In this document: one piece after another, positions 11,923-59,794 of the stretch | Layout of the letters: each line of letters opens with the position of its first letter | Numbering within the stretch: the first letter of the stretch is position 1 | Source: Candidatus Daviesbacteria bacterium | Lineage (GTDB): Bacteria; Patescibacteriota; Microgenomatia; Daviesbacterales; UBA10151 | DNA: 64,000 nucleotides | Direction: 5' to 3' | NCBI GenBank assembly: GCA_016187025.1 | Contig: JACPKM010000001.1 | Coordinates: forward strand, 448,055-512,054 | The notes under the pieces: generated by a model | The model's database searches: none | What the model saw: only the letters and a program-made list of their open reading frames with translations | Told to the model about the DNA's origin: nothing | Translations under genes and position numbers: made by a program

Positions 11923-11936
11923 ATTCAATAAATAAA

Positions 11937-18650: not shown

Positions 18651-18651
18651 T

Positions 18652-34934: not shown

Positions 34935-36405
34935 CTTTAAAGTAGCCTTCCTGTTTCTATTTTCTACAATTATTTTGTGGAGTTTGTTGACATATAAGCT
35001 AACAGACGTCCCACCTGCAATCAACGGAGATGAGGTGCATATAGGTTACAATGCTACTCTCATTGCCGACACAGCCTATGATCAAAATGGAAAATTTATG
35101 CCCATATTTGTAAGTGATGAGGGTAAAACTGATTGGAAGCAACCAATTACCCTTTACTCAACAGTTACAGCTTTTAAGATATTTGGACCTTCATTTTTTA
35201 TTTTAAGAGCAGTCAGTGTCCTCTTTACTTTAGTTAGCTGTCTATTATTATTTTTGCTTGTAAAGAATATGTTGAATATAAAAACTGCAATAGTTGCAGT
35301 AGTTATATTTGTTACCTCACCGATAGTAATGATTCAATCTCATCTAGCCCTAGAAAATATTGCACCAGTGCCATTTATCATTTTTTCATTGTTAATGTTT
35401 GTAAAGTACCTGAAGAGTCTAAATACTAAACTTCTAATTTTTGCTGGGATGAGTCTTGGTATAAGTTTTTACTCTTACTTGGGTATGAGATTGATTGCAC
35501 CTATGCTGGGAATGCTTTTGCTGGCATTTATAGTTTATTTACACAAAAAAGAGGGGAGAGGGAAAATAATTAAACCCTTACTTTTTTTTATTCTGGGCAC
35601 ATTACCTTTTGTTATCTTAATTCCAATTTTGAAACAGATGTATCCTGGAGCAATTTTGGCTGAAAACCGCCCTCAATCGATTTCTTCTTACCAGCAATTT
35701 TTACTGCCTTTTTTGTCTATTTATGATCTGAGCTTTCTATACTTAAAAGGTGATGCAACCCTATATCATTCAACAGGAAAGCATGGAATATTACTCCTTG
35801 CTTCACTACCCTTGTTTTTAATCGGTGCTTATAAAAGTATTTTAGATAGAAGTAAGCTTTTAATATTTTTGCTTATCTCTTTTTTTATTTTACCCGTTCT
35901 TTATGGCTTAACAGATTCGATATATAGAGGTAGCCGCATATTAGCAATTATTCCGCTTTATTCAATTATTTCAGCGTATGGATTTATAGCTTTTAGTAAA
36001 TATCAAGCGAAGCTACGAAAGTATGTTTTAGTAATTTTTATAGTTTTTTTCTTTGTGAATTATTTTGACTTTTTAAGTTACTACTGGGGAGATTATGCAA
36101 ATAGATCAAGATTAGTTTTTGATGGTGGCGCATATCCTGCATATAAAAATCTATACTTTCTCTCTAAGAAAATGAACATTAAGCCTTTTGTTGAGATTGG
36201 TGTTTATGGCGAAGAGACCCTAGCTTCTAGCTTTTTTGACAGGGTCTATTTTAATAATAGATTAAATAAAATAGAAAGATATACAAAACTACCTGAGCCG
36301 GGTATTGTATTAGTTCACGATAGTGATATGCAAAAGTACATAGATTTAGGCTTTAAAGAAATGCCTTCTGATTTTCCTTATTATAAACTTATGTGGCAAA
36401 ATTAA
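34921..36405 (+). CDS. GT39/GT83-family GT-C membrane glycosyltransferase
   Basis: The protein is 494 aa. The loop-1 motif is DVPPAINGDEVHIGYNATLIA...GKFMPIF. Confidence 0.6.
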   Translation: MLKINFKVAFLFLFSTIILWSLLTYKLTDVPPAINGDEVHIGYNATLIADTAYDQNGKFMPIFVSDEGKTDWKQPITLYSTVTAFKIFGPSFFILRAVSVLFTLVSCLLLFLLVKNMLNIKTAIVAVVIFVTSPIVMIQSHLALENIAPVPFIIFSLLMFVKYLKSLNTKLLIFAGMSLGISFYSYLGMRLIAPMLGMLLLAFIVYLHKKEGRGKIIKPLLFFILGTLPFVILIPILKQMYPGAILAENRPQSISSYQQFLLPFLSIYDLSFLYLKGDATLYHSTGKHGILLLASLPLFLIGAYKSILDRSKLLIFLLISFFILPVLYGLTDSIYRGSRILAIIPLYSIISAYGFIAFSKYQAKLRKYVLVIFIVFFFVNYFDFLSYYWGDYANRSRLVFDGGAYPAYKNLYFLSKKMNIKPFVEIGVYGEETLASSFFDRVYFNNRLNKIERYTKLPEPGIVLVHDSDMQKYIDLGFKEMPSDFPYYKLMWQN

Positions 36406-36409
36406 TAAA

Positions 36410-37333
36410 ATGCAAAGTTTGATACTTTATTTAGCTTTAGCTCTAGCAGTTTATAAAGGAGCAAAAATATTTAATAACGAAAGGAATTTTCAATTCTTTT
36501 CTGTTATTTCTATACTGCTTTCTCCTGTTTTAATCTATTTTGTTAAGTTATCTCAAATACCCAGTACTTTGATCTTATCCATAGCGGTAATTGCAACCAT
36601 TATATTAATGAATGCAAAGGTGCATTATTCAGCAGTTTTTGCATTAATAGTAATTTCTTACTTATATTATCCACTGAGTCCACTAATATTTATTCCACTG
36701 ATATTAATAAGTCTTGTGTTTTTTCAAGGAAAAGACTCCTTGAAAAGTAAGTTTGTTTTTTTGGGAATTGTTTTGCTTGTATCAATAGCCTCGTTAATTG
36801 TTTACTACCAAAGGGATAGTAATGGATTTAAAAATCTATTCTCCATTTATAATCATATAGGAATTATTAATGGGGTTAATGCCTCAAGAGGGATGGGGAT
36901 TGAAAATGGTTGGCCACTATTTTTGGAAAAAATATTTTTCAATCAGTCATGGTATATTGTCTCAGGGTTTTTTACATGGCTTTCTAATATTTCTATATAT
37001 AAATTCTTTGGACTTGATTATACTTATTCGAAAGATTTTTTAGAAAATCTTACCCTTTTTCCCAGAGTATTCATAATTCCATTCTTACTGGGGCTAGTAT
37101 CTATTATTAGAAGTAACATAAAAAAAAGCTGGTTATTACCAATCTTTTCTTTTATACCTCTATTACCATTTATGTTCGTTTATCCCTCAATACCAAAATT
37201 AAGTTACCTCCCCTCCCTTCCCTTTATTGCTTTTATTGTGTCGTTTGGTTTTATTTCTTTAAATAAATATCTTAGAATTTTAATATTGTTTTTTGCCTTT
37301 TTGGAGGCGTTGATAACATTAATTTATGTATAA
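36410..37333 (+). CDS. Hypothetical polytopic membrane protein
   Basis: The protein is 307 aa with about 8 predicted TM helices. It has no recognisable motif. It lies inside the GT-C array. Confidence 0.4.
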   Translation: MQSLILYLALALAVYKGAKIFNNERNFQFFSVISILLSPVLIYFVKLSQIPSTLILSIAVIATIILMNAKVHYSAVFALIVISYLYYPLSPLIFIPLILISLVFFQGKDSLKSKFVFLGIVLLVSIASLIVYYQRDSNGFKNLFSIYNHIGIINGVNASRGMGIENGWPLFLEKIFFNQSWYIVSGFFTWLSNISIYKFFGLDYTYSKDFLENLTLFPRVFIIPFLLGLVSIIRSNIKKSWLLPIFSFIPLLPFMFVYPSIPKLSYLPSLPFIAFIVSFGFISLNKYLRILILFFAFLEALITLIYV

Positions 37334-38978
37334 GTTAACCTTTAGTAAAACTACTGCCGCCTTTCTGGTTATCTTATTTTTAAGTTTCTTTTTGCGCTTT
37401 TATGGATTAACTCACAATCCTGTACAGCTAAACCACGATGAAATAAGCCAGCTATATGATACGGGTTCAATTATTGCTACAAGTAAAGATATTTACGGAA
37501 ATAAATTACCCTTAGCATTTCCTTCAACAGGAGATTATAAACCTGGTCACTACATTTATATTACAACCATCCCTTATTTAATCTTTGGTAATAAAGAATT
37601 TGTTATAAGGTTTGCTGCAGCTTTTTTTGGATCATTGCTACCTTTGGTGATTTTTATCCTACTTTATTCCACCACCAAAAAATTACTTTTATCCTTTTTA
37701 GCTGCCCTTTTTGTCACAATAAACCCCGCGGATATTTTTTATGCCCGGAAAAGCTTTGAAAATGTTATAGGAGTATTTCTACTATTTTCCGGCCTTACAT
37801 TACTTATAAATTTTATCGGAAAGAAGTTAAAGCTTTTTGTTGGTATTGGTGGCCTGCTGCTTATTTCATCTTCTATGTATGTATATACTTCTGAAACAAT
37901 TATTGCTCCAGTAATTTTGTTTTTATCAATATTGATTTACAAAAAGGAAATTTTTCAGGCCAAGAAAAGATGGTTGGTACTGCTGCTTTTATTTGTTTTA
38001 ACCCTTATTCCCCTGCTTTATTTAAACCAGATTGACAGCAACTTAAAATTTAGAGCTTCTTCAGTATTTATCACCCAAGATAGGCTTTTAGGAGAGAGGC
38101 TATCTGGTGTTCAAACTGGTAATTTTTTTCTCAGCGAAATTTCTAAAAAAATTATAACCTTTGAATTTATTGTTGATAGATACCTACAGCAGTTTAATCC
38201 ACTATTTATTTTTGGTAATGGATTAAATCTAACAAATCAGGGATTTATAGGAGTAGGTCCATTACTTGCTGTTGAGTTACCTTTTTTTATAGCAGGTTTA
38301 ATCTTTGTATTACGTAATGCAAAAAGTTACAGAGTTTATCTCCTAATATGTTTGTCTTTTATGATAGGATTTATTCCTACAGCTTTAACATTTGAAGAAA
38401 AAAGTCCTCATAGAGTAATTTTTTCATTTACTTCAGCGGCAATAATATCTTCCCTTGGAGTTTACTGGTTTATAGAATGTGTAAAAAGATTCAACAAGAT
38501 CACAAAAAGGGCTATTTATGCCACAATAATAGCCTTTTTTGTTGCAAACTTTGTCTATTTTATACAAATATATACAGTCAACTGGCCTTATGAAAAATCA
38601 CAACATCTTCATTATCCGTTCAAGCAAATAGCTTTATTTGCCTGGTATAATTATTCACAATTTGATCAGATCATCATTGATCCTGTTTACGGAGATGTAG
38701 CTCCTGTGCAAGCCGTAGCAGTACACTACTACCTTGCCTATTATGGAAATTATTCTCCCGATAGATTCCAAAAAGATTTAAAGCTGAATGAGTGGGGAAT
38801 GAGTGTAGATAAGTTTGCTATAAGAACAGTTTATTGGCCAAAAGATCAAAAATTGCAAAATACATTAATAATAGCAAGCCCCTGGAGTCTTCCTATAAAA
38901 GATTTACCAAAAGAAAAGATTTTAAAGACATTTAACTTTTACAATGGTAAGCCAGCTTATTATGCAATAAAGCTCTAG
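37326..38978 (+). CDS. GT39/GT83-family GT-C membrane glycosyltransferase (tandem array member 1)
   Basis: The motif is LRFYGLTHNPVQLNHDEISQLYDTGSIIATSKDIYGNKLPLAF (DE motif). The protein is 550 aa. Confidence 0.65.
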   Translation: MYKLTFSKTTAAFLVILFLSFFLRFYGLTHNPVQLNHDEISQLYDTGSIIATSKDIYGNKLPLAFPSTGDYKPGHYIYITTIPYLIFGNKEFVIRFAAAFFGSLLPLVIFILLYSTTKKLLLSFLAALFVTINPADIFYARKSFENVIGVFLLFSGLTLLINFIGKKLKLFVGIGGLLLISSSMYVYTSETIIAPVILFLSILIYKKEIFQAKKRWLVLLLLFVLTLIPLLYLNQIDSNLKFRASSVFITQDRLLGERLSGVQTGNFFLSEISKKIITFEFIVDRYLQQFNPLFIFGNGLNLTNQGFIGVGPLLAVELPFFIAGLIFVLRNAKSYRVYLLICLSFMIGFIPTALTFEEKSPHRVIFSFTSAAIISSLGVYWFIECVKRFNKITKRAIYATIIAFFVANFVYFIQIYTVNWPYEKSQHLHYPFKQIALFAWYNYSQFDQIIIDPVYGDVAPVQAVAVHYYLAYYGNYSPDRFQKDLKLNEWGMSVDKFAIRTVYWPKDQKLQNTLIIASPWSLPIKDLPKEKILKTFNFYNGKPAYYAIKL

Positions 38979-39026
38979 TATTATTTTGTTTTACTTCACT
39001 CAAGCTAACTGATAACATTAATTTAC

Positions 39027-40679
39027 ATGAATAAGTTAATTATTACCTTACTCTGTCTCATAGTCTTATTTTCCTTCGGACTTAGATTTTATAAAGTTTC
39101 AGAGGTTCCTCCTTCTTTAAACTGGGATGAAGCATCAATTGGCTACAATGCCTATTCTATTTTAAAAACGGGTAAAGATGAGTGGGGTAAACTATTACCC
39201 CTACACTTTAGATCTTATGGAGAGTATAAGCTCCCAGTACAAGTTTATGCTTCTATACCAGGCATAGCAATTTTTGGATTAAATGAATTTGGGGTAAGAA
39301 TCACTCCTGTAGTGTATGGAGCACTCACTGTTTTGATATTATTTTTCCTAGTACGTGAGCTATTTAAAAGCTACTGGATAGGACTTTTCTCTTCACTGTT
39401 ACTAGCAATATCTCCCTGGCATATTCAGCTGACAAGAGGCTCTTTTGAGTCTGCTTTTGCATGCTTTTGGGTAGTTTTGGGAATATGGTTTCTTGTTAAA
39501 GGGTTTAAAGACCCAAAATGGTGGATTGTTGCAATGATTCCACTTGCTTTATCTGTCTACACCTACAACACAGCGAGGGTGTTTACACCAGTATTTTTAC
39601 TTTTGGTTGCAGTCATCTACCATAAAGATATCCAAAAACAAATAAGGCATTTTCTGATATCACTTACTATATTTACTATCTTGATGATTCCACTACTTTT
39701 TTTTCTGTTAAGCGGAGAAGGGAATTCACGGTATAAGCTTGTGAGTGTGACAGATGATCCTGGGTTAGTACTCAGAATTAATGAACAAAGGGGGTTATCT
39801 AACTTACCTGGACCGCTTCCAAGACTTGTACACAACAAAGTATCTTATGTTGCAAAGGCTGTAATAGGTAATTATTTAGCACATTTTACCCCGGACTTTT
39901 TGTTTATATCAGGAGCTCCGCACAAACAGCACCATGTACAAAAAATAGGACAGCTATATTTGTATCAAGCTCCATTCTTACTTTTGGGGCTTTTATATCT
40001 GTTTAAGGCAAGACATAAGTTTAGATGGTTGTTGGTAACCTGGCCATTGTTAACATTTTTCCCAGTGGCCTTTACAAATGATAGCATCCCTAATGCCCTA
40101 AGAAGCTTAATCGCTGCTCCTTTTTATCAAATTATTACTGGAGTAGGGTTATATAATGCCTTTGTTTGGATTAGAAAAAGGTCATGTCCAGCTTTTTACA
40201 TCAGCGCTTTTGTTATGGCCACAGTAGCAATTACTACTTTTATACTTTATTTTCGAAACTACCTTTTTATCTATCCTCTAGAGTATTCCCGAGACTGGCA
40301 ATACGGTAACAAGCAGGCAGTTGAAACAATAAAGCAAAACTATGATAAGTATGATTTGATTGTATTCTCCAGACATTATGGAGAGCCACATATGTTTACG
40401 CTATTTTTTACTACATATGATCCGGCAAGATTCTTTAACGATCCTAGATTAACTAGGTTTGAGACTTATGACTGGGTAAGAGTCGTTAAATTTGACAAAT
40501 TTTACTTTCCTGATTTAGGAGATAAAGGTACTAAGTTTGACGATATCGTATCAAAAAACCCAGGCAAAAGAATACTCTTTATTGGCATACCCGGGGATTT
40601 TCCTAGCAGTATAACACCTATTAAAAAAGTAGATTTTTTGAATGGTAATCATGCATTTGAGATTATAGAGGTAATGTGA
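39027..40679 (+). CDS. GT39/GT83-family GT-C membrane glycosyltransferase (tandem array member 2)
   Basis: The motif is FYKVSEVPPSLNWDEASIGYNAYSILKTGKDEWGKLLPLHF. Confidence 0.65.
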   Translation: MNKLIITLLCLIVLFSFGLRFYKVSEVPPSLNWDEASIGYNAYSILKTGKDEWGKLLPLHFRSYGEYKLPVQVYASIPGIAIFGLNEFGVRITPVVYGALTVLILFFLVRELFKSYWIGLFSSLLLAISPWHIQLTRGSFESAFACFWVVLGIWFLVKGFKDPKWWIVAMIPLALSVYTYNTARVFTPVFLLLVAVIYHKDIQKQIRHFLISLTIFTILMIPLLFFLLSGEGNSRYKLVSVTDDPGLVLRINEQRGLSNLPGPLPRLVHNKVSYVAKAVIGNYLAHFTPDFLFISGAPHKQHHVQKIGQLYLYQAPFLLLGLLYLFKARHKFRWLLVTWPLLTFFPVAFTNDSIPNALRSLIAAPFYQIITGVGLYNAFVWIRKRSCPAFYISAFVMATVAITTFILYFRNYLFIYPLEYSRDWQYGNKQAVETIKQNYDKYDLIVFSRHYGEPHMFTLFFTTYDPARFFNDPRLTRFETYDWVRVVKFDKFYFPDLGDKGTKFDDIVSKNPGKRILFIGIPGDFPSSITPIKKVDFLNGNHAFEIIEVM

Positions 40680-42205
40680 ATACAAAAATAGTTTTAGTAC
40701 TAATTTTGTCTCTATTTTTAGTAACGCGGTTTTATAGAATAGCCGAGGTTCCAACATCTTTATACTGGGATGAAGCATCAATTGGCTACAATGCTTATTC
40801 TATTTTAACAACAGGCAAAGATGAATGGGGACAAGTATTACCAGTGCATTTTAGGGCATTCGGTGAATATAAACTACCTATCTATATATACACTGATGTA
40901 GCATTTGTAAAGCTATTTGGATTGAATGAATTGGCCGTTAGGTTACCTTCTGTTTTGTATACTTTTTTTTCAGTAATTTTAATCTATCTCTTAACTTTTC
41001 AGCTTACTGGTAGAAAACTAGCCAGTGTCTTGAGTGCATTTTTGTTTAGTATTTCTCCTTGGATGTTTATTTTTAGTAGGACAGGTTACGAGGCAGTAGC
41101 AGGATTGACGTTTTATTTACTAGGTATTTATTTATACCTCAGGAGTAAGAGTGCTACGTTTTTTATTTTATCTGGGTTAGCTTTTGCAATGAGTCTTTTT
41201 AGCTATAATAGTTTTCGAATTATTATTCCTTTAACAATTTTAGTTTTGTTGGTAAAGGATTTTAAAAAATCAAACATAAGAGATTTTATTAAAACTAGAT
41301 TATTGTTAGTGCCGGTACTTATAGCAGTCTACGTTCCCATATTAAGGTTTTACACCATAGGTGATGGTCTAGTAAGATTTCGATCTGTTGGTATATTTGA
41401 AGAAGGGATCAGTCTAGCAAGTTTTAAACTTTTTTTCCTAAATTATTTATCCCACTTTAATCCTGTCTTTTTGTTTTTGCAAGGAGACGGTAATTTGCGG
41501 AGTCAACAGTTCGGCTTTGGCCAATTATTTCCAGTGGACCTTCCATTTATCCTCGTGGGAATTTGGTATATATTAAAATCCAATATAAGAAACTATTTTT
41601 TAATTATTGCTTTGCTTGCTATTGCACCGATACCAGCAAGTCTTACTAAAGAATCCCCTCATGCTTTAAGGTCGATTGCAATGTCACCTTTTTTATCAAT
41701 TTTTTCTGCAATCGGAATCTATTACTTAGTAACAATAGTTAAAAAGTTTAGGAAAGTATTTTTAGCATTGGTAGTTTTAATAAACCTAGCTTTTTTTGGT
41801 ATTTATTTTTATTCTTTTTTACAAATTTATCCAACAAAGTCAGCAAATGATTGGCAGTATCCTTATAAAAAACTTTTTGTTGAAAAATCTGAAGAATTTA
41901 AAAAGTATAATGATGTTTATATATCAAATTATCTTGCGCAACCCTATATTTTTTATCTCTTTTATACAAAATATAACGCTGAAAAGTTTTTAAAAACATC
42001 AGAGAGAAATATTCCGCAAGAGTGGGGTTTTTCATCAGTAAGCAAAATAGATAATTTGCACTTTGTAAATTTAAAGATGGTTGAGACTTTCTCTGACAAA
42101 AGCTTGATAGTTGCTCCTATTAGTAGCAATGTGCAAGCAAAAAAGATCAATACCGCTGATACAAAGAATAATGAATACAATTTGAATTTATATATAAATG
42201 AATAA
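40676..42205 (+). CDS. GT39/GT83-family GT-C membrane glycosyltransferase (tandem array member 3)
   Basis: The motif is FYRIAEVPTSLYWDEASIGYNAYSILTTGKDEWGQVLPVHF. The coding nucleotides at about 40766-40808 are almost identical to 39123-39165. Confidence 0.65.
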   Translation: MNTKIVLVLILSLFLVTRFYRIAEVPTSLYWDEASIGYNAYSILTTGKDEWGQVLPVHFRAFGEYKLPIYIYTDVAFVKLFGLNELAVRLPSVLYTFFSVILIYLLTFQLTGRKLASVLSAFLFSISPWMFIFSRTGYEAVAGLTFYLLGIYLYLRSKSATFFILSGLAFAMSLFSYNSFRIIIPLTILVLLVKDFKKSNIRDFIKTRLLLVPVLIAVYVPILRFYTIGDGLVRFRSVGIFEEGISLASFKLFFLNYLSHFNPVFLFLQGDGNLRSQQFGFGQLFPVDLPFILVGIWYILKSNIRNYFLIIALLAIAPIPASLTKESPHALRSIAMSPFLSIFSAIGIYYLVTIVKKFRKVFLALVVLINLAFFGIYFYSFLQIYPTKSANDWQYPYKKLFVEKSEEFKKYNDVYISNYLAQPYIFYLFYTKYNAEKFLKTSERNIPQEWGFSSVSKIDNLHFVNLKMVETFSDKSLIVAPISSNVQAKKINTADTKNNEYNLNLYINE

Positions 42206-43790
42206 AAAGATAATCTTTATTTTAGGTTTAATTATTGTACTAGCTCTTTTTGTTAGGGTATATAAACTTGGTTCAGTTCCTCCATCACTGACTTGGGATG
42301 AAGCAGATGTGGGTTATAACGCTTGGACAATTGCAAATTACGGAAAAGATGAATGGGGGGAAGCTTTTCCCTTAATATTTAGATCTTTTGGTGATGATAA
42401 GCAGCCTGTTCATATTTATTCAACCGCTCTCAGTGTAAAACTGTTTGGATTATCAGAATTTAGCACCCGGTTGCCAATGGCAATCTACGGGGCTTTAAAT
42501 GTTTTGCTTGTATTTTTGCTGGTTTTGGTAATGTTTAAAAATAAGACTTTGGCTTTTCTTTCAAGCTTTTTACTGGCAATATCTCCATATAATATTCATT
42601 TTTCTCGTTTTAATCATGAGGCGAACGCAACCTTACTTTTCTTTTTACTAGGAATGTTGCTATTTTATCTGTCTTTTGAAAAGAGAAAAGGGTTTTTGGT
42701 ATTTTCTGCCTTAAGTTTTGGAATAAGTATTATTTCCTATCATTCAGCAAAACTAGTTGTACCCCCAATGATTTTAGCATTGGCCGTATTTTATTATAAA
42801 AAGCTTTTAAGTAATAAGATCTATTTTGTAACCGCTTCTTTGATATTTGCCTTTTTTATAATCCTGTTTTTACTGGAGCCAAGATTTATGGGATTATCAA
42901 GGGCAAGCCAGACATCATTAGGTTCAGAGGCTATAAAACAAACATCCATTTATAACAAAACCGGTAATATGTTTTTAGGAAAGTTGGAGATTATTAGTCA
43001 AAATTATCTCAAGAACTTATCTTGGGAATTTCTGTTTACCAAAGGAGATCCAAATCCTCGATTATCGTCTCAGGTTAGTGGACAATTTTATAAAATAGAT
43101 TCACTTTTTTTATTGCTGGGATTAATCTATATTTTTATCAAGAGAAGTAGATCCGGATTTATATTAGTTTTATGGGCAATTCTAGCACCTATTCCAGCTA
43201 GCATCACTTCAGAATCTCCTCACGCAGCCAGAGCACTATTTATGATGGGGAGTGTAAATATAATTTCAGCTTTAGGAATAAATTTTGCTATTTCGCAAAT
43301 TAAATTAAAGAAGATAAGATACAGTCTCCTTGTTTTTGTTTTACTGATATATTTTGCAAGTTTTGGACAATTTATTTATAACTATTTTAATAACTTTGCG
43401 AGAAACTATGCGATAGACTATCAGTATGGTATGAAGCAGGTTGTTGAATATGCTAAGGAAAATCCAAACTACTCACATGTATTTACGACAAAACTAAGGG
43501 GACAACCCTACATTTTCTATTTATATTATCTAAAGTATCCGTTACCTGATTATTTAAATAATGTGGTTTACAATAGAGGGGAAAGCAGCAGTTTTAACAT
43601 GGTTGATTATTTTGATAAGTATTATTTCGATAACTGGGACCCTATAGAAAGTAGACCTGATGCAAATGTATTGTATATATTAACTTCCAGTGAGTATGAT
43701 GGTTTAAGATATAAGAATCTATTTGATGTTAAGAGGGTAATCTATAATCCGAATGAGACGATAGCTTTTTATTTGGTAAGTGCAAACTAA
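42198..43790 (+). CDS. GT39/GT83-family GT-C membrane glycosyltransferase (tandem array member 4)
   Basis: The motif is VYKLGSVPPSLTWDEADVGYNAWTIANYGKDEWGEAFPLIF. Confidence 0.65.
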   Translation: MNKKIIFILGLIIVLALFVRVYKLGSVPPSLTWDEADVGYNAWTIANYGKDEWGEAFPLIFRSFGDDKQPVHIYSTALSVKLFGLSEFSTRLPMAIYGALNVLLVFLLVLVMFKNKTLAFLSSFLLAISPYNIHFSRFNHEANATLLFFLLGMLLFYLSFEKRKGFLVFSALSFGISIISYHSAKLVVPPMILALAVFYYKKLLSNKIYFVTASLIFAFFIILFLLEPRFMGLSRASQTSLGSEAIKQTSIYNKTGNMFLGKLEIISQNYLKNLSWEFLFTKGDPNPRLSSQVSGQFYKIDSLFLLLGLIYIFIKRSRSGFILVLWAILAPIPASITSESPHAARALFMMGSVNIISALGINFAISQIKLKKIRYSLLVFVLLIYFASFGQFIYNYFNNFARNYAIDYQYGMKQVVEYAKENPNYSHVFTTKLRGQPYIFYLYYLKYPLPDYLNNVVYNRGESSSFNMVDYFDKYYFDNWDPIESRPDANVLYILTSSEYDGLRYKNLFDVKRVIYNPNETIAFYLVSAN

Positions 43791-50077: not shown

Positions 50078-51055
50078 ATGCTAAAAAAAGACAGAGTTTT
50101 AGTAACAGGAGCAGGGGGTTTTATTGGCCATCATTTAGTATCTTATCTCAAGAAAAAGGGTTATTGGATAAGGGGAGTTGATATCAAGGAACCGGAATAC
50201 GAGAAGTCCCAGGCAGACGAATTCTTAGTTTTAGATTTAAGAGAAAAAGATAATGCACTCAAGGCTACTAAGGGAGTAGACCACGTATATGCTCTGGCAG
50301 CTGATATGGGAGGTATGGGTTTTATTTCTTCTAATCATGCAACTATTCTTTATAATAATTCGATGATTAATTTAAATACAATTGAAACTGCTAGAACGAA
50401 TGGTGTGAAGAGGTACTTCTATGCTTCTTCAGCTTGTATATACCCAGAATATCGACAAAAGGAAGTAAACTTAACACCTCTGAAAGAAGAAGATGCATAT
50501 CCTGCTCAACCTCAAGATGCCTACGGATGGGAAAAGTTAGTTAGCGAAATTTTAGTTAAGTATTATCATGAAGAACATGGAATAGAGACAAGAGTGGCTC
50601 GTTTTCATAATATTTTTGGTCCTCTAGGAACCTGGGATGGGGGAAGAGAAAAAGCTCCTGCAGCAGTTTGTAGAAAAGTTGCTATAGCTAAATTAACTGG
50701 AAATCATGAAGTGGAAATTTGGGGAGATGGAAAGCAGACAAGATCATTTTGCTATATTGACGATTGCATTGAGGGGATTTACAAATTAATGATGTCAGAC
50801 TTTAGGGAACCTCTAAATATTGGTCAAGATAGAATGGTTACAATAAATCAACTAGTTGATATTATTACAGATATTGCTGGTATAAAAGTAGTAAAAAAAC
50901 ACATTACCGGTCCTCAAGGTGTCAGAGGGAGAAATTCTGATAATACGAGATTAAGAAAAGAGCTGCAATGGGAACCTGAAATTTCTTTAGAAGAGGGATT
51001 AGCCAGGACTTATAAATGGATAGAAGAACAAGTAAAAGCAAAGATTGTATCCTAA
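50078..51055 (+). CDS. NAD-dependent sugar-nucleotide epimerase with a GDP-mannose 3,5-epimerase (GME)-like signature
   Basis: The motifs are VLVTGAGGFIGHHL and YASSACIYPEYRQ...PQDAYGWEKL. The ASSACIYPE block and YxxxK closely resemble the plant/bacterial GME family. Confidence 0.55.
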   Translation: MLKKDRVLVTGAGGFIGHHLVSYLKKKGYWIRGVDIKEPEYEKSQADEFLVLDLREKDNALKATKGVDHVYALAADMGGMGFISSNHATILYNNSMINLNTIETARTNGVKRYFYASSACIYPEYRQKEVNLTPLKEEDAYPAQPQDAYGWEKLVSEILVKYYHEEHGIETRVARFHNIFGPLGTWDGGREKAPAAVCRKVAIAKLTGNHEVEIWGDGKQTRSFCYIDDCIEGIYKLMMSDFREPLNIGQDRMVTINQLVDIITDIAGIKVVKKHITGPQGVRGRNSDNTRLRKELQWEPEISLEEGLARTYKWIEEQVKAKIVS

Positions 51056-51079: not shown

Positions 51080-51841
51080 TTGATAAAACTTTTATTATTT
51101 GGTATAAAGTTTCAAATGAAAGTAACCGATAAAAAAAGGAAATATAGCGTATCTGTAATTATTCCTTGCTACAACGAGGAAGGCAATATTGAGGAGTGTA
51201 TAAGACGAGTTCCTAAACTTGGCAGTGATACTGAAATAGTCGTAGTAGATGATGGATCCAAGGATGCTACAGCAGATATAATCAAGAAACTTCGTAAAAG
51301 ATATAAAAATTTAAAACTTATGTCTTATTTTCCAAACAGAGGCAAAGGCAATGCTGTTAGGGCAGGTCTAAATGCGGCCAAAGGAGACGTCCTTATTATT
51401 CTAGATGCTGATATGGCAGTGGCTCCAGAAGAGATGAATAAATTTGTTAAGCCTCTTATTGATGGCAAAGTCGGATTTACAAACGGAACAAGATTTATTT
51501 ATAAAATGGAGAAAGGAGCTATGGGGAAAATTAACTATATAGGGAATAGATTAATGGGGTTACTGTTTACTCTGGCTATAGGACAGAAAATTACCGACAG
51601 TCTTTGTGGAACTAAGGCTTTATTCAGAAAAGATTACAAAAAAATAGGAATTCATAAAGATGATCCATGGGGAGATTTCTCTTTAATTTTTGGAGCTGCT
51701 AGATTAGGACTCAAGATTCAAGAGATATCTATACACTACAAAAAACGGGTGGCCGGTAAGTCAAAAATGAAATTAATAGAACATGGTACGAAGTTATTCT
51801 ATATATGGTTTAGACAATTCCAGCAATATCGTTTTCAGTAA
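51080..51841 (+). CDS. GT2 glycosyltransferase (Dpm1/GtrB-like polyprenyl-phosphate-sugar synthase)
   Basis: The motifs are VSVIIPCYNEEGNIEECI...VVVDDGSKDATA and ILDADMA. Confidence 0.75.
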   Translation: MIKLLLFGIKFQMKVTDKKRKYSVSVIIPCYNEEGNIEECIRRVPKLGSDTEIVVVDDGSKDATADIIKKLRKRYKNLKLMSYFPNRGKGNAVRAGLNAAKGDVLIILDADMAVAPEEMNKFVKPLIDGKVGFTNGTRFIYKMEKGAMGKINYIGNRLMGLLFTLAIGQKITDSLCGTKALFRKDYKKIGIHKDDPWGDFSLIFGAARLGLKIQEISIHYKKRVAGKSKMKLIEHGTKLFYIWFRQFQQYRFQ

Positions 51842-51854
51842 GTTTTGTTTTTCT

Positions 51855-52583
51855 ATGAGGAAAAAAGCCAAAAATGAGCATCTCCAGAAGTTGAACCTTT
51901 TTATCAAACAACAACAGCACCTTAAGAAAGTTTATGCCCAGGTAAAAGGTATCTATTTGATAAATGAAAAGATTGGGTTAGTAATGGGAGGACATGGGCT
52001 TGATCATGTTCAAAGAGTCGCTGGAATGTCAGCGGTATTATCCTCACTGGAAGGAGTAAGCCCTTATCTACCAATTTTGGCAGCTTTAATACATGATTTA
52101 GGACGTATTAGCAACGACCCTAGAGCTAAAACTTACTTACATGGACAGTTATCTGTGAAAATGTCCAAAGAGATTTGAACCTCACTGCCTTTAACTGCAG
52201 AGGAGAGGATCATAGTTCAAAATGCAGTGATTGATCACCCTTTACTTAATGATAAGGTAAGAGTGAACTGGCTAGTGAAGGTATTGATGGATGCCGATAG
52301 ATTGGATAGTATGGGAGCGCTGGGTCCAGTAAGAGCAGCAGCTACGAGGTGGAATCTTCCCCTCTATACTGATAAAAAAATTGAATCTGCAGAGGAAAAA
52401 GACATAAAATCCATATTTCAGGATTTTTCCATCAGAGTCCCTAAAATCTATAATTCATTATGGACTAAATCAGCTCGTCAAATTGCCAGGTCCAGAATTC
52501 AATTTTTAAGGGTATTTATCAAAGAGTATGAAAAAGAGGCTCACTTTATGTTAAAAAGTTTTCATGATCTAGAAATTGAGTAA
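51855..52583 (+). pseudogene. HD-domain phosphohydrolase gene interrupted by a single in-frame TGA (52176-52178). The two tracked ORFs 51783..52178 and 52227..52583 are in the same frame.
   Basis: The upstream part carries the H...HD motif (LDHVQRVAG...ALIHDLGR). The downstream part carries DADRLD. Translating through the TGA gives a continuous sensible sequence (...KEI*TSLPLTAEERIIVQNAVIDHPLLND...). Confidence 0.5.
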
Positions 52584-52606: not shown

Positions 52607-55102
52607 GTGTCAATAATAAAATATATTTTAGTAACTGGCTCTGGTGGATTGATTGGTTCTGAAGCAGTCAACTTTTTTTGCAAGAATGACTACCAGGTAG
52701 TTGGGATCGACAATAATATGCGGGCATATTATTTTGGAAATGAAGGAAGTACGCATGAAAGTATTGAGAAGCATCAGAAAATCTATAAAAATTACAAACA
52801 TTTTAATATTGATATCCGAGAGAAAGAAGCGATAGAAGAAATTTTTAGAAAGTATAAATTTGATTTAATCATTCATACTGCCGCTCAACCTTCTCATGAT
52901 TGGGCTGCTAAAGAACCGTTAACGGATTTTAGCGTAAATGCCAATGGGACTCTAATATTATTAGAGAATTTTAGAAAATACTCATCAGAAGGAGTGTTTA
53001 TATTTACCTCTACTAATAAGGTTTATGGAGATAATCCTAATTTCTTGCCACTTGTAGAGAACAAAACAAGATTTGAGATAGATTCTAAACATAAGTATAA
53101 GAATGGAATAACAGAGGATATGCCGTTGGATAATACTACCCATAGCCTTTTTGGGGTTTCTAAAGCAGCAGCCGATTTGATGGTACAAGAGTATGGTAGA
53201 TATTTTAATTTAAAAACAGGTATCTTTAGGGGCGGGTGTTTAACAGGTTCGGGTCACGCGGGAGTACAGCAACATGGATTCTTATCGTACCTGGTTAAAT
53301 GTATTGTGACCGGCAGGAAATATACAATTTTTGGATACAAGGGTAAGCAGGTGAGAGATAATATTCACGCGCACGATTTAATTAACGCCTTTTATCACTT
53401 TTACCAAAAACCCCATATAGGGGAAGTTTACAATATTGGGGGGTCAAGGTTTGCCAATATTTCGATGCTAGAGGCAATAAAAAAAATTGAAGATATTTCA
53501 GATAGGAAATCAAATATTGAGTACATTGACCAAAATAGAATTGGAGATCACATTTGGTATGTATCTTGTATTGATAAGTTCAAAAACAGTTATCCCGACT
53601 GGAAGTATGAGTACGATATTGATGCTACTATAGAAGACATTTGCAGGAATAGTTACTTTGCTAAAAAAGTGTTCTCATTCTCGGTAGCTAAAAATTTAGA
53701 CTACTGGAGAGAAAAAAATTGGTATTACCATAACTTGTTGAGACAAATATTTAAAGAGGCTATCCCTGAGGGTTCAAAGGTATTACAAGTAGGTTACGGA
53801 TTGGGTGATATATTAGCATCGTTATTTCCTAAAAAAGGTGTAAGTATTGATGTTGACGACGATGTAGTTACGGTTTCAAAACGCAGATATCCCTACATCA
53901 AGTTTTTAAAAGCAGATCCAGAAAAGATTGGCCTAAAGAATAGGTTTGATTATGCGATTTTTCCAAATTCTGTCGATCACTTTACAGATATTCAACTTGT
54001 TTTGGAGAGAGTAAGTAGTGTTCTAAACAATAAGGGAAAAATTGTTATTGCTGGAATTAATCCAAGGTGGGAGCAAATATTTTATATATTAGAAAAACTC
54101 AATTTAAAAAGAAATGAACCTCCGCGAAATTGGTTGAGAATAGAGAATTTGAAAAACTTAGTAACTGTTTCTGGATATGAAGTAACAGATTATGGTTTCA
54201 GGATTTTAGTTCCAATGCATATCCCTGTTATAAGTAGGGTGATTAACAGGTTGGTAAAAAATGTAAAGTTCTTATCGCGTTTTTGCGTTGAACAATACGT
54301 CGTAGGCGAAAAGAAAAAAATTGTTATAGATAAAAAATTGACAACATCAATTATTATTCCCCATTTCAATCAATACGAAGATTTAAAAAAATGCTTACAA
54401 GAGCTTCCCAAAATTGGGAAAAAAACAGAGGTTGTATTGGTGGATTATGGTTCTGACAGTAACATTGTAGATCTGGTAAAAAGACTTATAAAAGGGTATA
54501 AAAACATAGAATTTATTGCTACTAAATGCGGGCGAAAAGAAGCGATTAAGCTAGGTTTAAACGCAGCTTCGGGAGATATATTCATAATTTATGAAGCAGA
54601 GATGGGTGTGCCAGCTACAGAACTAGTCAGCCTATACAAGTTATTGGCATCTAAACAAGCAGATTTTGTAAACGGTACTAGGCATATTTACCCCTTGAAG
54701 GGGCAACGTCTGCGTCAATTAAATATAATTGTTAACCTTCTATTTGGATGGTTTTATACTTGGTTACTAGGGCAGCAAGTAACTGATCTTTTATGTAATG
54801 TAAAAGCGTTGTGTAAAGAAGACTATGCGAAACTCAAAATAAACGGAAAAATAGATAGCAACTTTGATCTTCTTTTTGCTGCTGCAACAAATAATTTAAA
54901 AATTGTAGAATTACCAGTGCACTACCGCAAAAATTTCTCAGCTAAGTCAAATATAGAATTATTCAAACATATAGTTTTACTTGTTCAGATGGGTTTATTT
55001 GGTCTTTGGAGTATGAAGATTAAATCTTTACTTAAGGTGAGAACAAAGAAGATATCTTTACCGCGTGGAAAAAAATTAATCTTAGATCTTGTAGGGAAAT
55101 AA
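52607..55102 (+). CDS. Tri-domain fusion protein. The N-terminal extended-SDR domain is CDP-tyvelose-2-epimerase-like with Tyr->Phe at the YxxxK position. The middle domain is a class I SAM-dependent methyltransferase. The C-terminal domain is GT2 (Dpm1-like). GTG start.
   Basis: The SDR motifs are [23 protein letters not shown] and FGVSKAAAD (F where Y is expected), plus GKQVRD..H..D and NIGG. The MTase has [10 protein letters not shown] (motif I). The GT2 has [14 protein letters not shown]...[10 protein letters not shown], and YEAEM replaces the DAD motif. Confidence 0.65.
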
Positions 55103-55110
55103 GTCTTTTT

Positions 55111-56100
55111 ATGATAGTCATTACTGGAGCGAATGGTTTTGTGGGGCAAAAATTGGCACCCCTAGCTTTAAACTATTTTAAACCATCAGATATTCTATGT
55201 TTAATCCATAATGAAAATTCCCATTTGGAAAAAAGAGGTATTAAAATTTTAAAAAAGTTTGGATTAAAAACTTTAGAGGTCGATTTAGTTACAGGTAAAA
55301 ATTTAGATTTTGTTCCTAAGTCACCCGAATTTGTTATTCATTTGGCTGCGAATACCGACACTTCAAAATCTGATCACAGGGTAAACGATATTGGGACCAA
55401 AAATCTATTAGCAGTTTTATCGGGCATTGGTCCTAAAACGCATTTTATATATACTGGTACAACTGTATTGATGAGTGGAAGGGTTAAATGTCATAAACCC
55501 TTTAGTGAAAAGGATAGAGCAAATCCTACGAATGAGTATGGCAGAACTAAATTACGGGCGGAGAAGATATTACAAGAAGCTTGTCAGGAAAAGAAGTTTA
55601 GCTTAACAATAGCCAGGTTGAATACCGTCTATGGAGGAGACCCCAGAGAGCATAAGATGTTTAAAGTTTTGGAAAAAGATATAAAAAAGAGTAAATTCAC
55701 AACAAGGCTTAACTGGCCAGGTAAGACAAGCATAGTGCATGTTGATGACGTGGCAAAAGCCTTGCTTATGCTGTTAAAAAAACCGCCAAAACCAGGTCAA
55801 TCAGAGCTTGTTTTGCTATCTGCAGAATCTCCAACTTTCTCTGAAATCATTAAAGTTATGCATGAGAAGATGGGTTATAGTTATAAACCAATTAATCTCC
55901 CCGCTTTTTTTTGGAAACTCTTATCTAACAATAGAAAATTTATATTATATTTAGAAAAAATTACCCCTCCCAGCTTGTATAATCTATTTTGGAGATTAGG
56001 TTTAATTGTAGATGATGTTATATGGTGTGAAAGCATTAATGTTCCAAGGAAATTGTCAAATTGGAATCCTAAAAAAATTATAGAGGTTGAGAAATTTTAG
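55111..56100 (+). CDS. NAD(P)-dependent epimerase/dehydratase/reductase (extended SDR), generic
   Basis: The motifs are IVITGANGFVGQKL and YGRTK (YxxxK). The protein is 329 aa. It could be the 4-keto-6-deoxyhexose reductase partner of Gmd/GME, but the sequence alone does not resolve this. Confidence 0.6.
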   Translation: MIVITGANGFVGQKLAPLALNYFKPSDILCLIHNENSHLEKRGIKILKKFGLKTLEVDLVTGKNLDFVPKSPEFVIHLAANTDTSKSDHRVNDIGTKNLLAVLSGIGPKTHFIYTGTTVLMSGRVKCHKPFSEKDRANPTNEYGRTKLRAEKILQEACQEKKFSLTIARLNTVYGGDPREHKMFKVLEKDIKKSKFTTRLNWPGKTSIVHVDDVAKALLMLLKKPPKPGQSELVLLSAESPTFSEIIKVMHEKMGYSYKPINLPAFFWKLLSNNRKFILYLEKITPPSLYNLFWRLGLIVDDVIWCESINVPRKLSNWNPKKIIEVEKF

Positions 56101-56669: not shown

Positions 56670-57938
56670 ATGAAAAATTCATTGTCTAAAAACTCACATA
56701 GAATAAAGGAGGTAAATAAATTAAAAGACTGTAGAGTTTGTGGTGGAACCTCACTTTTAACTTTTTTACAGCTTGGCCCAACTCCAGCTCCTAATGGATT
56801 TTTAGATAAAATGCAATTGAATAATTCTGAAAAGTTCTATCCTCTTGATGTATGTTTTTGTGAAAGCTGTGGAATGGTTCAACTGGCTCATGTTGTATCT
56901 CCGAAAGTAATGTTTAGTAACTACGTTTATATACCCTCAACTTCAGTAACAATGCAAGGACATTTTAATAAGTTATCGATAGATGCTATTAAAAGGACAA
57001 ATGCCGAAAGAGGGAATTTAGTCGTAGACATTGGTAGCAACGACGGAACCTTACTTAAGTTTTTTAAGGAATCAGAAATGCAGATCCTAGGAGTTGATCC
57101 AGCAGTGAATTTAGCAGATAAGGCGAACAAAGAAGAGATTGAAACCATTTGTGACTTATTTACCAGAGATTTAGCAAAAAGAATTAGAAAAGAGAAGGGA
57201 GAAGCAAAAATTATTACCGCTACTAACGTTTTCGCGCACGCTCCGGATTTACATGATTTTGTGGAAGGGGTGAAGGCTTTATTGTCTGATGATGGATTAT
57301 TCATAATTGAGTTTCCTTATTTGATTGATCTTCTTGAAAAGGTAGAGTTCGATACTATTTACCAAGAGCATTTGTCCTATATTGCTTTAACCCCTCTTAA
57401 TAAACTCTTGGAGAAGCATGGTATGTACTTGATAGATGCTAAGAGAATACCTGTACATGGCGGATCGATTAGGGTATACGTTAGTAAAGTTAACAAAGCC
57501 TCTTCCCAAAAGTTTAAATCATTAATAAAGCTTGAGAAAAAAAAGGGAATCTTAAATAGAGAAACCTATCTTAAATTTAGAAAAAGAGTTGATAATATAA
57601 GACATGATCTCGTCCAGCTTCTCTGGAGTCTAAGGCTTAAAGATAAGAAAATTGTTGGATATGGAGCGTCAGCAAAGGGAAATGTTACTCTTAATTACTG
57701 TCGGATTGGACCTGAAACACTTGACTACATTGTTGATTCGATCTCTTATAAGCAAGGTAAATTTACTCCAGGGATGCATATTCAAATACATCCTGAGAAA
57801 AAATTATTGGAAGACCAACCTGATTATACTCTTATACTGGCCTGGAACTTTGCCGACGAGATAATTAACAAACAAGAAGAATATAGGAAAAAGGGTGGAA
57901 AATTTATCTTGATGCTCCCTGAAGTTAGGATAGTCTAA
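56670..57938 (+). CDS. NDP-hexose C-methyltransferase (TylCIII-like: zinc-ribbon, SAM-MTase and C-terminal C-methyltransferase domains)
   Basis: The N-terminal zinc ribbon is CRVCGG...CESCGMVQL. The SAM-binding motif is VVDIGSNDGTLLKFF. The protein is about 420 aa. This architecture is typical of sugar 3-C-methyltransferases. Confidence 0.6.
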   Translation: MKNSLSKNSHRIKEVNKLKDCRVCGGTSLLTFLQLGPTPAPNGFLDKMQLNNSEKFYPLDVCFCESCGMVQLAHVVSPKVMFSNYVYIPSTSVTMQGHFNKLSIDAIKRTNAERGNLVVDIGSNDGTLLKFFKESEMQILGVDPAVNLADKANKEEIETICDLFTRDLAKRIRKEKGEAKIITATNVFAHAPDLHDFVEGVKALLSDDGLFIIEFPYLIDLLEKVEFDTIYQEHLSYIALTPLNKLLEKHGMYLIDAKRIPVHGGSIRVYVSKVNKASSQKFKSLIKLEKKKGILNRETYLKFRKRVDNIRHDLVQLLWSLRLKDKKIVGYGASAKGNVTLNYCRIGPETLDYIVDSISYKQGKFTPGMHIQIHPEKKLLEDQPDYTLILAWNFADEIINKQEEYRKKGGKFILMLPEVRIV

Positions 57939-58765: not shown

Positions 58766-59794
58766 ATGGGAAATGACAAAGTTTTACATGGCCGGAAAAA
58801 AGGATTTTTGAAAGATAGCTCAATTTATCGTCCGTCTGATTTTTGGATTAAATTAAATGACATTCATCAGAAACAGTTAATGTTAGCTGGATTCAAAAAT
58901 TTTAAACGCTCAATTAATATGAAATATTTTAATTGGAGTACTTTGGGAATACTAGCTCACCAAGGACATCTAATTATTAATCAAATTAAAAGGGGTAACT
59001 GGCAGCCAATATTCAAAAGTAATTTTTTTAACTATAAAAGTAAATCTCGTTCAGCAGTATATAGGTTTAATCCTATTTCAGCCTTTATTTATAAAACCTT
59101 TGTAGCAGCTTATATGGATTATCTGCAGGGAGTGGATAAACAGAATATATTCAAAAAAATTAGTGAACCAAAAATCGGTAATCCATTCCTAATATCTTAT
59201 AGAGACAAGAAAATCTCTCAAGATTTATGTAATTCGGTTCATGAGTTTTACAGCATTACTAACCCGCTTGAGAAAACAAAGAAATTGAGAATTCTAGAAA
59301 TAGGAGCTGGTTATGGAAGGCTTGGCTATATTTTCCTAAATCAACTACGAGATTGTTCGTATTGTATAATTGATATTCCACCCGCCCTATTTGTTGCTCA
59401 AAAATATCTTACCAAAGTTTTTCCTAGGGAAAAATTTTTTCACTTCCGGTCCTTTAATTCATTTAAAAAAGTAAAAAAAGAGTTTGAGTCAGCGCGAATA
59501 AGTTTTCTTAATGCTGATCGGATAGAATTATTACCCGATAATTATTTTGATTTGGTGATTAACGTTAGTTCTTTACATGAAATGACTAGAGAGCAAATTA
59601 ATAATTATTTTAGACAGATTAATCGTATTTGTCGTGGATATTTTTACACTAAACAATGGCGAAAATCCAGAACCTCTGATAACAACTATATATCTGAAGG
59701 GGATTATCCCCGTCATGCTCGTTGGAATACAATTTTTCAGCGTCAACACCCAATACAGAAAATGTTCTTCGAAGCATTATACAAAATTCTTTAA
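58766..59794 (+). CDS. Putative sugar O-methyltransferase (class I SAM-dependent)
   Basis: The SAM motif I is LRILEIGAGYGRLGYIF. The size and context resemble the putative sugar O-MTases found in glycan loci. The start is ambiguous. Confidence 0.45.
   Translation: MGNDKVLHGRKKGFLKDSSIYRPSDFWIKLNDIHQKQLMLAGFKNFKRSINMKYFNWSTLGILAHQGHLIINQIKRGNWQPIFKSNFFNYKSKSRSAVYRFNPISAFIYKTFVAAYMDYLQGVDKQNIFKKISEPKIGNPFLISYRDKKISQDLCNSVHEFYSITNPLEKTKKLRILEIGAGYGRLGYIFLNQLRDCSYCIIDIPPALFVAQKYLTKVFPREKFFHFRSFNSFKKVKKEFESARISFLNADRIELLPDNYFDLVINVSSLHEMTREQINNYFRQINRICRGYFYTKQWRKSRTSDNNYISEGDYPRHARWNTIFQRQHPIQKMFFEALYKIL

Follow-up and report, generated by a model that had tools for sequence, protein, structure and literature searches.

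A putative sister clade of the CDP-tyvelose 2-epimerases with phenylalanine at the catalytic tyrosine position, and its natural fusion to methyltransferase and glycosyltransferase domains in Candidatus Daviesbacteria

Extended short-chain dehydrogenases/reductases (SDRs) of the Epimerase superfamily (PF01370) are characterized by a Rossmann fold with a GxxGxxG motif, a C-terminal substrate domain and a catalytic Ser/Thr-Tyr-Lys triad, the last two residues of which form the YxxxK motif. One group of such enzymes is formed by the CDP-tyvelose 2-epimerases (TyvE or RfbE; SDR1E, EC 5.1.3.10), which epimerize a CDP-hexose at C-2, and studies of TaTyvE have revealed a tetrameric enzyme with a triad of T124, Y164 and K168, a Thr124-Asn125-Lys126 (TNK) segment, a Val83-Ala84-Met85 (VAM) segment that, together with Gln205, contacts the hexose, and a diphosphate-binding loop that includes Arg299 (PMC13098431). 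Cytidine binding in TyvE has been assigned to W207, W210 and F211 (PMC7851689). Here we describe a relative of these enzymes encoded in a 64-kb stretch of a Candidatus Daviesbacteria (Patescibacteria) genome, the whole of which is hereafter called the window: a single open reading frame (ORF) in which a TyvE-like SDR domain bearing Phe at the catalytic Tyr position is fused to an S-adenosylmethionine (SAM)-dependent methyltransferase and a family 2 glycosyltransferase (GT2). As judged by sequence, this N-terminal domain falls into a large group of proteins that is sister to CDP-tyvelose 2-epimerase and is referred to below as the Phe clade, a grouping defined in this analysis and not a curated family.

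Alignment of clade members with two TyvE sequences and with partner SDRs, using residue roles taken from the TaTyvE papers, places the SDR domain (aa 1-352; 52607..53662, + strand) close to TyvE while revealing a pocket that differs from it at many positions. By sequence, the closest solved relatives are the CDP-tyvelose 2-epimerases 9RL0 (E 5.5e-37) and 1ORR (E 7e-35), and the AlphaFold2 (AF2) model of aa 1-355 (pLDDT 94.2, pTM 0.92) finds its best structural match in 1ORR as well (TM 0.88/0.93, root-mean-square deviation 1.9 A), findings that agree with the relationship to CDP-tyvelose/paratose 2-epimerase proposed in an earlier note made from the sequence of this stretch. Rossmann fold and substrate domain are both present, as is the NAD-binding glycine motif G11-S-G-G14-L-I-G17 (52637..52657, +). 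Shared with TyvE are, in addition to GxxGxxG, the Asp after strand beta-2, Arg39 (StTyvE Arg35), the Thr-Asn-Lys segment (T136-N137-K138; 53012..53020, +), which contains the triad Thr (PMC13098431), the triad Lys, and the motifs GKQVRD and NIGG, the last already pointed out in the earlier note. Both the 9RL0 and the 1ORR alignment put the FGVSK segment of the query on HSPYGCSKGAAD, where TyvE reads YGCSK; Phe182 therefore occupies the position of the catalytic Tyr164, and Lys186 that of Lys168 (F182-G-V-S-K186; 53150..53164, +). Accordingly, two of the three triad residues, Thr136 and Lys186, are kept while the Tyr is replaced, just as the earlier note had read it. The nearby HKYKNG, put forward there as a possible displaced YxxxK, can be ruled out in this role: it lies in a hypervariable loop (aa 159-166) that differs in length and sequence across the clade. 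The other four SDR-like ORFs of the window (1295-2350, 3799-4842, 50078-51055 and 55111-56100) all carry YxxxK, again as had been noted.

Beyond the Tyr, differences from TyvE are found throughout the pocket. In place of the sugar-contacting VAM segment of TaTyvE (PMC13098431) stands P95-S96-H97, followed by D98 (52889..52900, +), in which, across the A2 set, the first three residues do not vary and D98 hardly does. S193, Q199 and Q205 of TaTyvE are replaced by C211, H217 and H223, clade-specific residues of the loop that folds over the sugar pocket (53237..53275, +), such that both hexose contacts, VAM and Gln205, are changed. The cytidine-site residues W207, W210 and F211 give way to F225, Y228 and L229. 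Similarly, R311-I-G-D-H315 (53537..53551, +) aligns with the diphosphate-binding loop that includes Arg299 (PMC13098431), with the clade-specific His315 in place of a TyvE Gln. In short, where TyvE reads QVAMT / S / Q / Q, the clade reads QPSHD / C / H / H, and the query carries the full clade signature: AAQPSH(D), STNK, HS-x-[F]-G-x-SK, Cys211, His217, His223 and R-x-G-D-H.

The earlier note had treated the Phe as a peculiarity of the fusion, a view at odds with the distribution of the domain, since Phe proves to be the normal state of a very large and mostly stand-alone clade. All 53 of the near-full-length fusion homologues described below read HS[LI]FGVSK. Other transferases, too, are fused to this N-terminal domain (55-68% identity), again with Phe save for one Met: such fusions comprise more than 20 proteins with a GT4 domain (PF00534), approximately 30 with a GT26 domain of the WecB/TagA/CpsF type (PF03808), from Acidobacteriota, further fusions to GT8 (PF01501) and to other GT2 domains, and one protein with a match to PF03414 (GT6). 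In a scan of GTDB, with one genome per species, relatives of the SDR domain were detected in at least 598 species from many phyla. The best 80 of these (56-65% identity) are distributed over Patescibacteria, Bacteroidota, Cyanobacteria (Nostoc), Planctomycetota, Verrucomicrobiota, Acidobacteriota, Omnitrophota, Nitrospinota, Proteobacteria and a metagenome-assembled genome of Woesearchaeota; an ORF could be called in 79 of the 80 loci, nearly all of them encoding a stand-alone protein of approximately 350 aa, and Phe is present in 77 of the 78 with a readable motif (57-65% identity). Consistent with the size of the clade, when homologues were sought again with a stand-alone member as the query, every one of the 8000 candidates scored had E < 1e-40, and the only names among them were the generic one and that of JGI discussed below.

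Residues kept across the clade comprise GxxGxxG with G11, G14 and G17 invariant, D35, R39, D69, H90-x-A-A-Q94 (H90, A92, A93 and Q94 all invariant), T136-N137-K138 with T136 and K138 invariant, and K186, to which are added the invariant H97, C211, H217, H223 and H315. An all-against-all search of 50%-identity representatives yielded 644 clusters below E 1e-30, and among clusters bearing the clade signature position 182 is F in 93, Y in 10, L in 3, M in 1 and S in 1. Because this position varies in an otherwise constant pocket, the Tyr appears to be dispensable in the clade, and because the few members with Tyr182 carry the identical pocket signature, clade identity is independent of its loss. 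What sets the clade apart is therefore a pocket that is remodelled yet constant, with F, Y, L or M accepted at the former Tyr position. In four further Phe-type SDRs (P0099, P0103, P0108 and P0117; 460-480 aa), an N-terminal extension of approximately 100 aa was observed, with no Pfam match listed for the extension and no C-terminal glycosyltransferase.

The fusion itself occupies positions 52607..55102 of the + strand and, from a GTG start to a stop codon included in these coordinates, encodes 831 aa without interruption; one source names the product simply a Candidatus Daviesbacteria protein. Pfam searches divide it into three non-overlapping domains, as the earlier note had proposed: an Epimerase domain (PF01370; E 2.7e-38) spans aa 7-278, methyltransferase models (Methyltransf_31/11/23; best E 1e-10) cover aa 376-527, and Glycos_transf_2 (E 2.4e-12) covers aa 581-716. 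Neither with the fusion nor with the isolated SDR domain nor with the partner SDR did any NCBIfam model reach its curated cut-off. The exact 831-aa product is present on contigs of three separate sequencing runs, independently assembled, and a search for homologues recovered 53 that are nearly full-length (54-70% identity), all of the same three-domain architecture, in continuous reading frames with conserved linkers; those that are named derive from Patescibacteria (Woesebacteria, "Patescibacteria group"). Two long contigs (loci L004 and L005) are, moreover, syntenic with the window, sharing a gene order of PMT_2 GT-C genes, GT2, GT4, a gene of no known type, a Wzx-type flippase, GT2, GT4, sometimes SDRs, and the fusion. 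The state observed in relatives without the fusion is an SDR alone and not three separate genes, and in the best 80 GTDB loci no gene combining methyltransferase and GT2 was found next to a stand-alone Phe-type SDR. Taken together, these findings indicate that the ORF is a genuine, selected gene for what is predicted to be a multi-domain enzyme, located in a very large cell-surface glycan cluster. Two additional proteins (P0057 and P0059; 870-877 aa) display a second, more distant SDR-methyltransferase-GT2 architecture, in which the SDR shows 49-51% identity to the query and carries the signature QPSHDK / YYI, and the GT2 domain also matches the GT21 model; their divergence suggests that the three-domain design has split into at least two lineages.

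Conservation is distributed unevenly along the fusion. Compared with the query, the 52 fusion homologues are on average 77% identical in the SDR, 59% in the methyltransferase and 43% in the GT2 domain. A similar picture emerges from the surroundings of the stand-alone Phe-type SDRs, in which three kinds of partner gene recur within four genes on either side, mostly at one or two genes' distance: a Tyr-bearing TyvE-like SDR with the signature STSR...Y...K (32 of approximately 78 loci, most often directly adjacent), a Dpm1/AglJ-like GT2 (27 loci) and a GT26 (10 loci). In nine loci from about six phyla (L009, L013, L027, L035, L041, L045, L046, L047 and L077, with the match at about 6001-7060 in most) these form a cassette of Tyr-type SDR (approximately 354 aa), Phe-type SDR (approximately 350 aa) and Dpm1/AglJ-like GT2 (approximately 250 aa), for which there is no curated name. 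Where loci could be compared, mean pairwise identity is 64.5% for the Phe-type SDR, 50.5% for the Tyr-type SDR and 47% for the GT2. That the Phe-type SDR is more conserved than both of its partners is hard to reconcile with a decayed domain.

The AF2 model of the remaining part of the fusion (aa 355-831; pLDDT 88.7, pTM 0.85) is likewise confident. Its first portion is a class I SAM-dependent methyltransferase domain (aa approximately 360-565; 53684..54301, +), in which motif I (53780..53809, +) retains GxGxG as G396-Y-G-L-G400, the sequence GYGLGD being conserved in at least 90% of homologues, as is the acidic D415 at the end of the next strand (53849-53851, +). The residue preceding motif I is Gln394, where Asp or Glu is usual. 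Foldseek matches this domain to class I enzymes that include the sugar O-methyltransferases RebM and AtmM, and sugar O-methylation is a putative activity that we infer from context only.

The GT2 domain (aa approximately 578-800; 54338..55006, +) is of the GT-A type, with ArnC (9B77/9BHC, E about 1e-14), DPMS (5MLZ) and GtrB as top Foldseek matches (E 1e-14 to 1e-10), and phmmer likewise matches it to ArnC and DPMS. D613-Y614 (54443..54448, +) stands where ArnC and DPMS have DD; D613 is present in 50 of the 53 homologues, and position 614 is variable (G22, D21, N6 and others). At the DxD metal site, where both ArnC and PfDPMS read DAD, the query has E663-A-E665 (54593..54601, +), the DxD typical of polyisoprenyl-phosphate glycosyltransferases thus being absent; this Glu-x-Glu is unique to the fusion among the 12 GT2-like ORFs of the window. 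At the first of these positions 51 of the 53 family members have D, the query being the single one with Glu. Elsewhere in the domain E672, R692, Y695, P696, D727, L755, I766 and E768 are invariant in the family and K733 and H772 nearly so. A long, moderately hydrophobic C-terminal helix (aa 782-814; 54950..55048, +), identified from the AF2 model and hydropathy, is probably a membrane-interface helix and not a clear transmembrane span. The fused domain is 39% identical (E 6e-55) to the GT2 encoded at 51080-51841.

Several explanations for these observations have to be weighed. The one that we favour, with a probability of roughly 55%, is that the SDR domain is an NAD-dependent modifier of a sugar nucleotide, with acid/base chemistry and nucleotide preference other than those of TyvE, feeding a methylating, polyprenyl-phosphate-loading module. 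Its invariant polar pocket residues, combined with the kept NAD motifs, form the pattern expected of an enzyme whose chemistry has been altered and not of one that has decayed. Under such a scheme the domain, probably an epimerase or oxidoreductase, would have shifted its acid/base work away from the Tyr position and onto different residues of the pocket, and would probably be specific for a nucleotide other than CDP. The product would receive a methyl group from the central SAM methyltransferase before reaching the GT2 domain, which would either load the sugar onto polyprenyl phosphate itself or hold the lipid carrier for the canonical paralogue at 51080-51841; the lipid-linked sugar would then be flipped and used by GT-C enzymes, as in the logic of ArnA, ArnC and ArnT. 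Elsewhere in the clade, the SDR would supply a modified sugar to whichever transferase is fused to it or encoded beside it. A number of points weigh against this proposal. Removal of the catalytic Tyr from GalE (Y149F) reportedly costs about four orders of magnitude in rate, and the case for SDR activity comes from sequence and predicted fold. The assignment of H97, C211, H217, H223 and H315 to the lining of the sugar/diphosphate pocket is likewise a prediction, made by alignment to the contacts described for TyvE. The SH that follows AAQ or AAE is found in 4,6-dehydratases too (ESHVD), in which it is not known as catalytic, and part of the clade signature may therefore concern NAD binding only; a role of PSHD as a new catalytic dyad was considered and, for this same reason, is not claimed. 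The order of the three reactions, in turn, is suggested by the fusion alone. Further points concern the GT2 domain: the second Asp of the DxD site is present in only 16 of 53 family members, the others having L (16), V, N, Q or R among other residues; the position of PfDPMS Gln93, which together with Asp91 is said to be a metal ligand in the DPMS structure, is Ser or Thr in the family and Gly in the query; and a transmembrane anchor finds no support in hydropathy, the two moderately hydrophobic helices (aa approximately 704-722 and 785-803) reaching a Kyte-Doolittle 19-mer maximum of 1.48, below the usual transmembrane threshold. With a degenerate metal site and no clear transmembrane helix, transfer to polyprenyl phosphate by the fused GT2 is uncertain.

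These last findings raise the question of whether the GT2 domain is catalytically dead and kept for binding of membrane or lipid carrier or for complex formation, with the SDR and methyltransferase active and the paralogue at 51080-51841 performing the transfer. The changes of DD to DY and DAD to EAE in the query, the loss of the second Asp and of the Gln93 equivalent across the family, the status of GT2 as the least conserved domain and the presence of an intact paralogue two genes upstream all point in this direction, and the rarity of the second Asp together with the invariance of other GT2 residues suggests a family of metal-independent or non-catalytic GT-A domains. The earlier note was correct in reading YEAEM in place of the DAD/DSD of the paralogs, and the anomaly is broader than it recognized, as the second Asp is absent from 37 of the 53 homologues, whereas the query retains an acidic residue at this position. 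We nonetheless regard a dead GT2 as doubtful: the invariant residues listed above speak against it, Glu is in principle able to bind metal in place of Asp, and in the syntenic loci L004 and L005 no extra GT2 is found in a similar place directly upstream. This possibility is compatible both with the favoured explanation and with the SDR being a pseudoenzyme, that is, a recognition, scaffolding or regulatory module that binds NAD or a nucleoside diphosphate (NDP)-sugar for the attached transferase and that, when stand-alone, would form hetero-oligomers with the neighbouring Tyr-type SDR. The lack of the catalytic Tyr, the fusion of the domain to unrelated glycosyltransferase families (GT2, GT4, GT8, GT26 and the one PF03414 protein), the frequency of a Tyr-bearing TyvE-like SDR within four genes and the tetrameric state of TaTyvE (PMC13098431), which makes mixed oligomers conceivable, all speak for such a module, the nucleotide-sugar "binding and recognition module" of the earlier note. 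Such a role fits poorly, however, with an SDR that is more conserved than its partners, in the fusion as well as in operons, and that is the most conserved part of the fusion; with the retention of NAD-site residues, triad Thr and Lys, Asn137, Lys138 and additional invariant polar pocket residues, which would be unusual for a pure binding module; with the many stand-alone copies, the majority, that have no adjoining Tyr-type partner; and with the identical pocket of the Tyr182 members. A pseudoenzyme, the chief competitor of the favoured explanation, thus seems rather unlikely. Still less can be said for an ordinary CDP-paratose/tyvelose 2-epimerase, the name given to clade members by the automatic annotation of JGI: TyvE is indeed the closest solved relative by sequence and fold and has the TNK segment and GKQVRD in common with the query, but the changes at Tyr164, VAM, Gln205 and the cytidine site, an identity of only approximately 33%, the failure of any NCBIfam equivalog model to reach its cut-off and the finding that none of the annotated ORFs of the window (many ORFs at 1-31 kb are unannotated) scores above the cut-off of a model for the CDP-hexose pathway, with CDP-glucose 4,6-dehydratase appearing among them as a weak secondary match only, render it very improbable. 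Most improbable of all, to the point of being negligible, is that the fusion is an assembly artefact, a frameshift, a read-through product or a decaying pseudogene. It would draw on the unusual motifs and on the in-frame stop of an unrelated neighbouring HD-domain gene, and is contradicted by the identical ORF in three assemblies, by the 53 fused homologues with unbroken frames and conserved linkers, and by the confident AF2 models of both halves; assembly artefact and split orthologues, the two outcomes that the earlier note had asked about, were ruled out on these grounds. Both this explanation and the ordinary TyvE are effectively excluded.

The surroundings of the fusion are devoted largely to glycan synthesis. 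Flanking it on the + strand are two canonical SDRs, a GDP-fucose-synthase/GME-like protein of 325 aa with YGWEK (50078..51055) and an RmlD-like protein of 329 aa with YGRTK (55111..56100), the start of which lies 9 nt past the stop codon of the fusion, as well as the paralogue of the fused GT2 domain (51080..51841), a stand-alone Dpm1/AglJ-like GT2 of 253 aa in which DDGS and DAD are intact. The SDRs and GT2s of the window outside the fusion are only 24-31% identical to the recurrent partner genes of the stand-alone Phe-type SDRs, and orthology with them is not claimed. At the start of the window, rmlB (1295-2350) scores above its NCBIfam cut-off and is accompanied by a GMD-like SDR (3799-4842), and ORFs within 247-4842 fit rmlA, rmlC and rmlD by size and position; given these candidates together with rmlB and the GMD-like gene, donors of the dTDP-rhamnose and GDP-6-deoxyhexose types are probably made within the island. 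Besides its 12 GT2-like ORFs, the window encodes GT4s, a GT87-like gene and a Polysacc_synt (Wzx-type) flippase. Upstream of the fusion lies a tandem array of PMT_2/PMT-type GT-C genes (34921-43790), in which four of five large ORFs match PF13231, and a run of ORFs of 490-1190 aa further upstream (10426-25298) may contain more PMT-type genes. Just downstream are a sugar C-methyltransferase of Methyltransf_13/14, TylC3-like architecture (56670-57938) and a putative sugar O-methyltransferase of the NanM family (58766-59794), on the basis of which the cluster seems to make several methylated sugars. A 125-aa ORF on the - strand (56927-57304), antisense within the C-methyltransferase gene, is most likely a chance ORF. 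Between the stand-alone GT2 and the fusion, an HD-domain phosphohydrolase-like gene (51783-52583, +) is divided into two ORFs of 131 and 118 aa in the same frame by a single in-frame TGA (52176-52178). An identical split is found in an independent assembly (L001), and the gene could be a pseudogene or could be subject to stop-codon read-through or recoding.

Within the open-access literature and the family libraries, no characterized member of the Phe-type clade or of the fusion was found, TyvE being the only subject of related work, and a literature search for FxxxK retrieved only the unrelated yeast Pbr1; within this scope and that of NCBIfam, the statement of the earlier note that no counterpart had been described stands. 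The names attached to 240 listed homologues are either generic ("NAD-dependent epimerase/dehydratase family protein") or the automatic "CDP-paratose 2-epimerase" of JGI, a label carried by P0087, P0093, P0270 and many other members of the Phe clade. As neither the catalytic Tyr nor the VAM segment nor the cytidine-site residues of that enzyme are present in these proteins, the latter name, which is at odds with three of the four sequence features tested, is probably an over-annotation. If the Phe clade is active, it would represent a widespread natural exception to the textbook Ser/Thr-Tyr-Lys rule for sugar-nucleotide SDRs, and a common step of cell-surface glycan synthesis would await assignment, including in Patescibacteria, the surface chemistry of which is thought to mediate attachment to host cells. 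As a pseudoenzyme, on the other hand, it would stand out for its strong conservation and wide distribution. The case is of interest for the size of the clade, its conservation and its ready-made fusions, and these natural glycosyltransferase fusions provide an experimental handle, since the attached transferase should use the product of the SDR. A bolder proposal, which we offer tentatively and with the balance tilted somewhat against it, is that the Phe-type SDRs constitute a new catalytic class among extended SDRs, in which a His/Cys/Asp acid/base system or a bound metal replaces Tyr-Lys and the substrate is a sugar nucleotide or a lipid-linked sugar; they would make an unrecognized activated sugar that enzymes of at least four glycosyltransferase families (GT2, GT4, GT8 and GT26) build into the surface glycans of bacteria from many phyla and of some archaea, and the Daviesbacteria fusion would be a one-polypeptide route by which this sugar is made, methylated and loaded onto lipid.

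How, then, does the fusion compare with described systems? TyvE/RfbE is its nearest relative (best sequence match at E 1e-35 to 1e-37), and to the pocket differences detailed above are added the fusion to methyltransferase and GT2 domains and the fact that genes for a CDP-3,6-dideoxyhexose were not identified nearby among the annotated ORFs of the window. With the polyisoprenyl-phosphate glycosyltransferases DPMS (5MLZ), GtrB (5EKP), ArnC (9B77) and AglJ, the GT2 domain shares the GT-A fold, the N-terminal IIIP..N strand, Asp613, a GD six residues before the DxD position and segments resembling interface helices, whereas it departs from them in its metal site (EAE in the query and D-x-[L/V/N/Q/R/D] in the fusion family), in the Gln93 equivalent and in having no clear transmembrane segment. 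Likeness to the Arn pathway is one of overall logic: in ArnA, ArnC and ArnT, as would be the case here, SDR-based modification of a sugar nucleotide is fused to a group-transfer domain, a GT2 loads undecaprenyl phosphate and a PMT_2/ArnT-like GT-C enzyme uses the lipid-linked sugar, a parallel made closer by ArnC as best structural match of the fused GT2 and by the PMT_2 genes upstream. The domains are not orthologous, however, the SDR of the fusion being TyvE-like and not UXS/ArnA-like; a methyl group would be added by the fusion, where ArnA adds a formyl; all three domains of the fusion are on one chain; and its GT2 has a degenerate DxD and no C-terminal transmembrane hairpin.

Loss of the triad Tyr has itself been encountered before in the SDR superfamily, in two different settings. 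NmrA, HSCARG and MAT2B have the SDR fold without the catalytic Tyr and act in dinucleotide sensing or as a regulatory subunit; these proteins have diverged in the glycine motif and substrate pocket as well, both of which the Phe clade, itself very strongly constrained, keeps. UDP-GlcNAc 4,6-dehydratase/5-epimerases of the CapE/FnlA type, in contrast, are active extended SDRs with a Ser-Met-Lys triad that use other pocket residues. They belong to a different, Polysacc_synt_2-like subfamily, with Met as the replacement and a known reaction, and their relation to the Phe clade is at the level of the superfamily only. Given the existence of such Ser-Met-Lys enzymes, the Phe clade would be a new variant and not the first example of an SDR without the triad Tyr.

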